From positions 3,072,001 through 3,136,000 of the forward strand of contig OY970194.1 of the NCBI GenBank assembly GCA_963708075.1: a stretch of 64,000 nucleotides of DNA. The letters are read 5' to 3'. A program made the position numbers and the translations under genes. The notes below the pieces were generated by a model. That model was not told the DNA's origin. It was given only the letters and a program-made list of their open reading frames with translations, and ran no database searches. Below are positions 25,672-27,926 of this stretch, in pieces (the stretch's first letter is position 1; each line of letters starts with the position of its first letter). Source of the DNA: Sedimentisphaerales bacterium. GTDB lineage: Bacteria > Planctomycetota > Phycisphaerae > Sedimentisphaerales > Anaerobacaceae.

Positions 25672-26254
25672 CTACATTGGACGCGGTCTGCCGCGATAAT
25701 CGGCGGTCTTCACCAGTCCCTCGCGGACCCCCTCAACCAGCCATTGCTCACCGCTGGGACTGGTGAAAACATACCAATCCACTTCCCCCGAGAACCGAAC
25801 GCAGCCCCCCCTGCTTCACCGGCACGACGGCCGGCGCAGTTGCCACGCCCGCAAGATCCTTGGCGACCACGGCGGTCTCAGGTCCCTGCATCGGGGCTTT
25901 GGAATCCCCCCAGACAGCCACAAAATGAAGGGCCAGACCAAGAATCAATCCGGCGGCCAGACCAACCGCAAATCGCATGCGGCCGTCGATCCGGAGAATC
26001 CGCCGGTAAGTGGACCTTGTATGCTGCTGCCAGGCCCGCTCGAAAATCTGGTCTGCAGAGGCCCCCCCAGAAACCTCTGCAGCCACTGCCTGATAGCTCT
26101 GTTGACGAAGACTGCGCAACTGCTCCAGCAACTCCCTTGCCTGGCTGTTGGCATCGAGTTCTCGTTCCAGGATCTTCCGCTCGGCCGGCGAGATCTCGCC
26201 ATCGACGAGCTTGCCGATCAGTATTTCCAGCCAATCATTGGTCTCATTCATCAT
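25672..26254 (-). CDS. Putative single-TM anti-sigma factor (apparent frameshift near 25785-25796)
   Basis: N-terminal LI.KLVDGEISPAER..LE..L anti-sigma-like helix bundle and one TM helix. The C-terminus EVDWYVFTSPSGEQWLVEGVRE...PM* is in a shifted frame. Overlaps the sigma gene stop. Confidence 0.7.
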
Positions 26255-26828
26255 TCAAGCACCTGCTATCGGTCTTGCCTATCACCTGATTCTGCACCAT
26301 TCGTCTGGCCCGCACGAGGCGGATCTGCATGGTCGTCATCGGCACCTCCAGCACCTCGGCCATCTCGGCGTAGGTCAGCTCGCCCGTGTGCGCCAGCACG
26401 AATACTTCGCGATACTTCTCGGGCAAGGTCCTGACCGCATCGAGAATCCGGCCGCATAACTCGCTCTTCTCGACCTCGTCCAGAGGGTCCCGAACATATC
26501 CATCCAGCTTGAGCGAAATCATGCTTTGATCCACCTGCATATTCCTGGGCGTCCGTCGCCGGTAGTGCTTCAGGACCTCCCGGCGGGCCACCGCAGCCAG
26601 CCAGGCCCGAAACCGCTCCGGCTCACGCAGCGTGTGAATCCGCGTAATCACGCGAAGGCACACCTCCTGAAGCACGTCATCGAGGTCCTGTGCATCGGCC
26701 AGCACGCTGTATACCAGGCCCTTGAGCCAGCCCCAGTTGCGCTTCAGGAGCAACTGCAGGGCTTCTTTGTCGCCCCTTTGGGCCGCACAGGCCAGTGCCG
26801 ATTCGTTTTGAGCCGTTACTTCCATCAA
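26244..26828 (-). CDS. ECF-type RNA polymerase sigma-70 factor
   Basis: AQRGD..AL..L, DDVLQEV.LR, FRAWL..VAR, LPEKYREVFVL....LTYAEMAEVL..P..T...RL.RAR. Confidence 0.92.
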   Translation of the reverse strand: MMEVTAQNESALACAAQRGDKEALQLLLKRNWGWLKGLVYSVLADAQDLDDVLQEVCLRVITRIHTLREPERFRAWLAAVARREVLKHYRRRTPRNMQVDQSMISLKLDGYVRDPLDEVEKSELCGRILDAVRTLPEKYREVFVLAHTGELTYAEMAEVLEVPMTTMQIRLVRARRMVQNQVIGKTDSRCLNDE

Positions 26829-27033: not shown

Positions 27034-27514
27034 TTGGCTTTGTTTCGCACGCCGGGTCGGCTACCATGTAGCCCAGCCGCCCTCGGCTGGGATCACCCCC
27101 GGGGGCGGGGGTGCTACTTGCCACTTCACACTTCAGACTTGAAAACCTCCTCCTCCAAATTGGCTTTGTTTCGCATCATCGCACAATCAACCACAACCCC
27201 TTTTCTGCAAATGACTTAGCATTAAGGCATCCGGTCAACATTGGCTTTGTTTCGCAAAGTCATCCACGCGATCTCCTCCGGCCTACGGCCTTCTCCCAGC
27301 AGATTGGCTTTGTTTCGCACACCCGCACTTGCCACCGAAGGTGTGTCGCAGCGCTCTTCTGCTCTTCACTCCGCACTCCGCAATCCCCAATCCGCAATCG
27401 CCGCCCACGGGCCCCGGAATTGGCTTTGTTTCGCACACCCGGACCTTCCACGCAGCCTGTCGTATTCGCCTTCCCCAAATGCCCCATCGCTCCCAAGTTT
27501 GGCTTTGTTTCGCA
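27034..27514 (+). repeat. Array of six exact 16-bp direct repeats TTGGCTTTGTTTCGCA with unique variable-length spacers
   Basis: Copies start at 27034, 27160, 27241, 27304, 27420 and 27499; spacers are 110, 65, 47, 100 and 63 bp. Confidence 0.92.
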
Positions 27515-27851
27515 CAAAACATCGTGGCGAGGCCACAGGGCCGAGCGACGAGGGAACACCTCCCCGGCCCCACCCTCCGTGGAGAACCTACGTCATCGCG
27601 GGCAAAAAGGTGAGATTTCCTTCCCTCCTCTTGTACGAGCATCTACCTTCAGTCACGAAACTCGCCTACTGGAAACGGCAATAGCTGGCCTGCACCTGAT
27701 CGCATAAGTCTTTATTTGTCAACTATTAACCCTTGTGGCGCAAGGACTTACGAGCACCCTGTTTGGACCAAAAATCCGTGTGTCGCTGGTTCAGGTCCAC
27801 GTGTATCGCTGATGCGCCCGCAAGAAAACTCGGCCAGATTGGTTTTTATTG

Positions 27852-27897
27852 TTGACTCCTACGACAACATGTCGTATATCAACGACAAGCTATCGTA
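27852..27897 (+). promoter_or_regulatory. Sigma70 promoter overlapped by tandem BlaI-type operators
   Basis: TTGACT-N17-TATATC; perfect palindrome TACGACA-ACA-TGTCGTA (27860-27876) and imperfect copy AACGACA-AGC-TATCGTA (27881-27897). Confidence 0.8.
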
Positions 27898-27926
27898 GGT
27901 CAACGTGAATACTGAGGACCAGGCAA

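Follow-up and report, generated by a model that had tools for sequence, protein, structure and literature searches.

A six-repeat array between divergent regulators

The window analyzed here is a 64,000-nucleotide stretch of the genome of a Sedimentisphaerales bacterium, referred to below as the host genome. Between two divergent regulators, an ECF sigma gene (26244 to 26828, minus strand) and a BlaI/BlaR1-type pair (from 27927, plus strand), lies an array of six direct repeats. The 16-mer that defines it occurs without mismatch at 27034, 27160, 27241, 27304, 27420, and 27499, always on the plus strand, as the original prediction had it; in shuffled sequence it finds a mean of 0.46 matches even at three mismatches, and six were reached in 0 of 100 shuffles. 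Direct reading also bears out the A that precedes five of the six repeats and the C that follows four. The divergent regulators were likewise correctly predicted, but the array does not fill the 1.1-kb gap between them, taking up 481 bp of it. Spacers 1 to 5 measure 110, 65, 47, 100, and 63 bp and are mutually unrelated, with pair scores of 10 to 18 against a shuffled maximum of 25. The four ORFs crossing the array have no Pfam match. The features of the locus are as follows.

27034 to 27514, minus strand: gene-less array of six repeats (the minus sense of the motif is the coding strand in gene-bearing copies)
27034 to 27049: repeat 1, the 16-bp core, at which the element's protein may bind
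27050 to 27159: spacer 1, with a REP-like GTAG hairpin doublet (27068 to 27117) and a heptamer run (27122 to 27145)
27160 to 27256: core unit of repeat 2, palindrome, and repeat 3, period 81 bp
27193 to 27219: imperfect palindrome of the TAA-N19-TTA type whose halves are IHF-like, separated from repeats 2 and 3 by 17 and 21 nt, respectively
27257 to 27303: spacer 3, a module common to other arrays, no match outside arrays
27304 to 27319: repeat 4, exact 16-mer
27320 to 27419: spacer 4, with a heptamer run (27367 to 27400), the commonest spacer class
27420 to 27435: repeat 5, exact 16-mer
27436 to 27498: spacer 5, a module common to other arrays, no match outside arrays
27499 to 27514: repeat 6, exact 16-mer
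27704 to 27751: two adjacent palindromes of the core-palindrome family, ~190 to 210 bp away on the element's 5' side

The palindromes at 27704 to 27751 may be the left end of the element, though the module that holds them also occurs array-free elsewhere: these 110 bp (27684 to 27794) are found again, with no array, at C1:4138639-4138750 of the host genome and in several congeners. Upstream of blaI, an inverted-repeat pair at 27859 to 27900 is a likely operator of a BlaI-type repressor. Nine matches to the ECF gene in relatives, in neighborhoods that differ from that of the window, have no upstream array (more than 1.3 kb of upstream DNA in seven, 524 nt in one, and 39 nt in one).

A dispersed family of arrays built from shared modules

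Counting the 16-mer across the 7.5-Mb host genome, a check suggested with the original prediction, returned 126 exact copies, a number that rises to 285 when two mismatches are allowed, and the window array is one of 42. The set analyzed comprises 42 arrays with 294 repeats and 252 spacers. All 41 of the 41 multi-copy clusters are single-stranded, the arrays have up to 13 repeats, the sequence logo gives a repeat core of 16 to 19 bp, and spacer length ranges from 16 to 359 nt.

Whereas the spacers of the window had been described as unique, 145 of the 252 spacers match one in another array, and all five window spacers are among these (best scores 139, 41, 47, 78, and 41 for spacers 1 to 5). 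Spacer 1 has end-to-end relatives in other arrays, and its hairpin part matches many sites in congeners as well. Spacer order is not kept, as 20 neighbor pairs are shared against 21.7 after shuffling (p=0.6). The spacer cores consist of REP-like hairpins and runs of heptamers, both of which are also met elsewhere: 108 of 234 spacers have matches outside arrays, and for two such motifs 25 of 30 and 179 of 219 copies lie outside. Because these outside matches rarely span a whole spacer (most of its length in only 4 of 234), the units appear to travel as repeat-plus-spacer modules. The proposal that such arrays accumulate unique foreign DNA is thus not sustained, the spacers being reused modules; blastn of the window-array spacers also gave no match among 50,697 phage and 72,556 plasmid records. 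Four DNA contig sets contain joints at repeats with sides of 20 to 45 nt, which may derive from other arrays or organisms.

We also note IS-like insertions in or beside several elements (host arrays near 862912 and 3805438; 4778929-4780453; 3464847). Two arrays are flanked by an identical 1.5-kb sequence, and one element is split.

A core unit with fixed geometry

The palindrome between repeats 2 and 3 belongs to a TAA-N19-TTA type with 197 sites in the host genome, compared to 28 for a reversed control. Its arms pair no better than base frequencies predict, and because they lack excess complementarity, the palindrome is better read as a protein site than as a hairpin. At 95 of the 197 sites the halves resemble the IHF consensus as given in the excerpted text of PMC5224486, a loose likeness scored with no control. 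Three HU/IHF-family genes are found in the host genome.

Within the host arrays, the palindrome lies in 19 units of 18 arrays, all gene-less, and 18 of these 19 share one geometry, with 21 to 23 nt to one repeat and 17 or 25 to 26 nt to the other. The palindrome matrix was seeded partly on array sites, which affects scores, not distances. Exactly one core is present in 17 of 25 long gene-less arrays, a more even allotment than random assortment gives (p=0.0012). None of the host's 10 gene-bearing arrays has a core unit (0/10), while many homologs elsewhere have the core at the gene tail.

The same arrangement recurs in other genomes. Among 110 loci, the palindrome is found in 47 of 86 repeat pairs, compared to 6 of 415 shuffled spacers. 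In these 47 units, the palindrome is 21 to 23 nt from one repeat in 44 and 24 to 26 nt from the other in 43; the exceptions, at 35 nt (three) and 15 nt (one), are steps of ±10. Gene-less arrays of relatives agree, with 11 of 13 units fitting, some with inverted repeats (12 regions from four relatives, chosen for clustered matches), and the motif is found in both orientations in relatives. Core geometry is therefore kept while flanking sequence diverges, as would be predicted for a bent nucleoprotein loop, in which distances stay fixed or shift by one helical turn. Helical phasing over all unit lengths is weak (R ~0.15, gene-less arrays) and is clear in the core unit only. These results support the earlier claim that conservation is at the nucleic acid level.

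Far from arrays there are 146 further palindrome sites, mostly intergenic, 7 of them within 300 bp of tRNAs where 0.66 would be expected. These are candidates for a symmetric IHF/HU-type site of this lineage.

The arrays are linked to a multicopy gene family

The suggestion to look for a gene family co-occurring with such arrays proved productive. In ten arrays, the other strand is the 3' part of a nine-copy gene family, one copy being split and its array interrupted, and repeats follow the gene in 9 of 9 host copies. Profiles of the gene's leader recognize 23 genomic places. All but one of these immediately precede an array on its 5' side (22 of 23), and 13 of the arrays concerned are gene-less, so that 13 of the 32 gene-less arrays retain a leader. 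To judge from sequence, the leader-bearing gene-less arrays are internal-deletion derivatives of the gene-bearing element. The window array carries neither recognized leader, and for this reason its place in the family rests on its repeats, its spacers, and its core unit. That the region might encode a conserved protein had been named as grounds for rejecting a DNA-level array; this is half the case, as the array is translated as a protein tail in gene-bearing copies, while the window copy is gene-less.

Five gene copies with 90 to 94% identity lie in unrelated contexts with sharp shared ends, at which no terminal inverted repeat or target-site duplication was seen by eye; the element's left end is at a palindrome. 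A quick tree sorts eight gene copies into two genome-specific groups, where shuffling would give 7.7, indicating genome-specific expansion. With dN/dS of 0.18 to 0.57 over 85 codons in 28 pairs of gene copies, the family gene is under purifying selection. In 7 of 8 intact copies the reading frame continues without a stop as far as a conserved C-terminal peptide, which is also present in 19 of 257 homologs, and only 4 of 81 frames in long gene-less arrays are open.

Linkage of gene and motif extends beyond the host. The translated motif, in several frames, is found in the tails of 101 of the 150 best homologs, with a mean of 2 for shuffled tails, and the DNA motif is present at 55 of 59 metagenomic homolog loci as opposed to 1 of 27 far flanks. 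The 59 are those of 79 loci with enough tail for scoring; far flanks served as control since the reversed motif scored at 20 of 59 loci through overlap with tandem half-repeats. Of 18 congeners, 17 have the family gene and all 18 the DNA motif (7 to 726 copies); among 12 genomes of other families of the order, the gene occurs in 3, and the motif has 10 copies in one and 0 to 1 in eleven. Across the phylum, the multicopy gene has a patchy distribution, with 9 of 121 genomes carrying it. With two mismatches allowed and no control, the motif was further found next to homologs at 3 of 4 distinct loci of an acidobacterial genome and on two plasmids, one from Planctomyces and one from Marivivens; scored likewise, it immediately precedes the start codon at 4 of 5 scored viral loci of the YqaJ-ERF group. 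Related genomes and loci are not independent, and these counts of breadth describe patterns rather than tests.

Several subfamilies merit mention. A Terriglobia subfamily (L008-L019, L210-L221) has a divergent N terminus, no DNA motif, another 3' repeat, and up to 17 matches per genome, and offers a natural test of protein-site covariation. In family f36 (L155-L160) the homolog is single copy (6/6), has neither the N-terminal motif nor the DNA motif at its tail, and is apparently domesticated; a dehydratase-like gene, the same one in each case, is nearby at 5 of 6 loci. The YqaJ-ERF elements (L062, L063, L066-L068, L070, L179-L182, L184) combine the family gene with YqaJ and ERF, mostly also with TerL, DUF5681, and a ParB-methylase, and have the repeat motif at the family gene's start or inverted after its stop. 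A literature search by family names found no paper that brings together even three of these five protein families. Four low-GC simple-repeat loci from a viral pattern scan were dropped, the family gene being absent in the three inspected.

The protein is helical with a conserved N-terminal motif

The family protein, of ~175 residues, was modeled (pLDDT 89.5) as all-helical, with two short N-terminal helices, a linker, a long antiparallel hairpin, and a variable tail; the N-terminal part modeled alone has a pTM of 0.34. Matches to the protein core number at least 24,999 representatives at E<=0.001, and 8,208 clusters (50% identity) at E<=1e-10. The core has no match in Pfam, NCBIfam, or PHROGs, transposase families included. 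PDB sequence searches returned no significant match, and named homologs are all "hypothetical," the best named relative (L007) having 51% identity. A protein atlas gave only hypothetical clusters for the protein and nothing named for residues 1 to 50. Fold searches found only generic coiled coils (best Z 8.1) and no TerS, with residues 1 to 62 barely covered. An HGGxSTG domain was rejected as its identity, as there was no NCBIfam match and no paper on it was found.

The N-terminal motif has 11 invariant positions in 46 sequences from several lineages. Residues 1 to 45 match residues 101 to 145 of a viral small terminase of PF05119 (L069), encoded upstream of TerL and portal, with 97.8% identity. 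This is the one TerS with the shared motif, and a TerS PHROG match was obtained for 1 of the 46 N termini, a weak one (E 0.046). No catalytic signature is visible in the protein. In six host copies the Tyr of its YERRIE motif is replaced by His or Phe; this residue is thus not conserved, and the protein itself is not the nucleophile.

A probable gene-less derivative of a one-gene element

Family membership, gene linkage, and fixed geometry are observed directly, and we consider it very probable that the window array is derived from an undescribed one-gene element and lacks its gene. As predicted, the system appears to be new: a literature search found no description of the element, though the supplements of PMC10910872, which lay outside the search, could list the family. 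Of the functions that had been offered for the array, an iterated protein-binding platform fits best. Probably, judging from the sequence features above, the array is a DNA platform for the element's protein on the repeats and an IHF-type bender on the palindrome. The explanation as a whole, in which a one-gene element is dispersed in the genome and the window array, a non-autonomous copy of its cis-acting site, works as a platform at the DNA level, is the one we favor by a little over even chances.

Under this explanation, the N-terminal motif of the protein would bind the 16-bp repeats, and a host IHF/HU-type protein would bind the palindrome and bend the DNA, so that the two repeats come face to face. 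Recombination at repeats may add units and swap them between arrays, with REP-like and heptamer repeats inserted into the spacers. As no catalytic site is visible, the protein must recruit an enzyme. The likeliest candidate is a large terminase, in which case the protein would act as a stand-alone small terminase with the core unit as a cosB- or pac-like signal, and gene-less arrays would use protein supplied in trans.

By analogy, then, the recruited enzyme might be a large terminase and the route of spread a hijacking of packaging, a tentative proposal with the odds against it. In lambda cosB (R3-I1-R2-R1), an IHF site lies between two TerS-bound repeats (excerpts of PMC4856287). TerS proteins (15 to 21 kDa) join an N-terminal DNA-binding part to a helical hairpin and a flexible tail, and in P22 the pac site lies inside the TerS gene (excerpts of PMC9611059). 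The helical layout of the modeled family protein is compatible with this. The fuller version is doubtful: a terminase-hijacking replicator with a small-terminase-like gene, its own cosB-like site in or behind the 3' end, and dozens of gene-less sites seeded. Equally doubtful is its corollary, that these sites would be packaging or cutting starts for a helper phage terminase or an orphan TerL and would make much of the chromosome transducible, with the gene-motif pair present in thousands of clusters of several phyla. Of 16 viral loci, 10 have a TerL close to the family gene, a count that includes four self-hits and two loci of the same element from a collection that favors TerL, and in TerL-bearing YqaJ-ERF elements DUF5681 has the usual TerS position. 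No TerL was found near the gene at 131 cellular loci (0 of 79 metagenomic, 0 of 30 from relatives, and 0 of 22 acidobacterial), and neither capsid nor portal was found in the host genome. Packaging alone, moreover, does not account for duplication within a genome.

The host genome does contain an orphan TerL-like gene (C1:6070072-6071658; L171:12073-13659, minus strand) among housekeeping-looking genes, and a TerS-like ORF 18 kb from it (C1:6089383-6089808). The TerL-like gene is single copy in the host and is present in 30 of 31 genomes of the order with 52 to 79% identity, element-free ones included. It is possibly a domesticated terminase and possibly a partner of the element, its conservation being no evidence of partnership.

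Alternative explanations

In a first alternative, the core unit would form the same DNA loop but be a recombination site, such as an att site or transposon end; the recruited enzyme would then be a tyrosine recombinase of the host or a RAYT/HUH transposase, by which the element is moved and its units are shuffled like cassettes. The near-identical copies with sharp ends in unrelated contexts, the scrambled unit order, the palindrome at the left end, and the enrichment of off-array palindromes near tRNAs are all consistent with this, and the host genome has 4 tyrosine recombinase and 13 Y1_Tnp matches. Against it stand the ends, at which neither terminal inverted repeat nor target-site duplication was seen, the replacement of the candidate Tyr in six host copies, and unannotated clustering of 109 loci, which gave no recurrent recombinase neighbor; we regard it as unlikely, at roughly one chance in five. 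A more specific version, the palindrome as a lambda-Int core or dif site, was set aside because the arm spacing is unlike that of those sites, and is retained as a rival only. Domesticated chromosome-organizing sites, parS- or centromere-like, where repeats on either side of an IHF bend would be bridged by the protein to the host's benefit, would explain one core per array and the long coiled coil, and have a model in P1 parS, whose arms lie around an IHF site with helical phasing (excerpts of PMC2241845). Such sites would hardly be spaced at random (CV 1.04) with no replichore bias (17/42), vary from 7 to 726 motif copies among congeners, or go with a gene as multicopy and patchy as this one, which makes a role of this kind improbable.

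That the arrays might be a functionless BIME-like mosaic of REP and heptamer repeats, spread passively, has a basis in the abundance of spacer cores outside arrays and in the reiteration of REP clusters with flanking DNA reported in the excerpted part of PMC3733652. Yet the repeat is nonpalindromic and, in different phyla, linked to a single gene family, and the core geometry survives under diverging flanks, so that we give this mosaic very little credence. The least probable of the alternatives, by a narrow reckoning, is a transcribed and processed guide-like RNA array with spacers that address other repeat families. This processed-RNA option of the original prediction draws on the single-strandedness of the host clusters and on a promoter-like leader that points into many gene-less arrays, but it has fared poorly: the window has no Rfam match and no structure beyond shuffles (folding z-score 0.71), its gap has no sigma-70 promoter match, spacer lengths are far from uniform, repeats are inverted in relatives, and the ±10-bp steps of the core point to DNA.

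Under the favored explanation, a very large protein family (8,208 clusters) with no Pfam, NCBIfam, or PHROGs entry can now be assigned a candidate target on DNA, with its geometry defined, and a class of non-autonomous derivatives. If the terminase reading is true, it would give the smallest of selfish elements a new way of moving and be a source of gene transfer on a large scale among uncultured bacteria; if false, there is still a selected multicopy element with no recognizable transposase. The arrays also warn that CRISPR-like arrays can be DNA platforms.

Comparison with known systems

By the features that define those classes, the array is not a CRISPR, an insertion sequence, a REP element, or a noncoding RNA. 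CRISPR repeats are ~23 to 50 bp, with spacers of near-constant length. The array shares direct repeats and differing spacers with CRISPR and with the hypervariable-spacer arrays in the excerpted text of PMC10910872, and type I-E CRISPR uses an IHF site near its repeats (excerpts of PMC5224486). The prediction that it is no CRISPR is nonetheless upheld by its short core repeat, variable spacer length, and spacer reuse, and cas1 (PF01867) was not found in the host genome, which is 92.8% complete. The systems of PMC10910872, as far as its excerpts describe them, are linked to other genes (AddB-like, GGDEF/MFS).

With REP, REPIN, BIME, and MITE-type sequences, the arrays share spacers with GTAG hairpins and doublets, as well as gene-less copies derived by internal deletion from a gene-bearing element. 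Unlike REP and BIME, the unit-defining repeat is not a GTAG- or CGTC-tagged palindrome and is tied to a non-transposase gene. Unlike insertion sequences and MITEs, the element has an all-helical protein model matching no transposase family (DDE, HUH, Tyr, or Ser) and no terminal inverted repeat or target-site duplication that could be seen.

P1 parS-IHF-ParB likewise has protein boxes on either side of an IHF bend, helically phased (PMC2241845, in part), whereas the element shows no ParA/ParB linkage and is chromosomal and multicopy. The P27-family TerS (PF05119, L069) has the 45-residue N-terminal motif in common with the element's protein, which in contrast lacks the PF05119 domain and is not encoded upstream of a TerL. 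Closest in layout is lambda cosB with gpNu1 and IHF, where short repeats surround an IHF-type site at constrained spacing and are served by a cognate small helical-hairpin protein (excerpts of PMC4856287 and PMC9611059). The element's protein differs from gpNu1 in having no sequence or fold match to it, and the element differs from cosB in having no cosN, TerL, portal, or capsid and in its ~40 chromosomal copies, most of them gene-less, with up to 13 repeats and swapped spacers.
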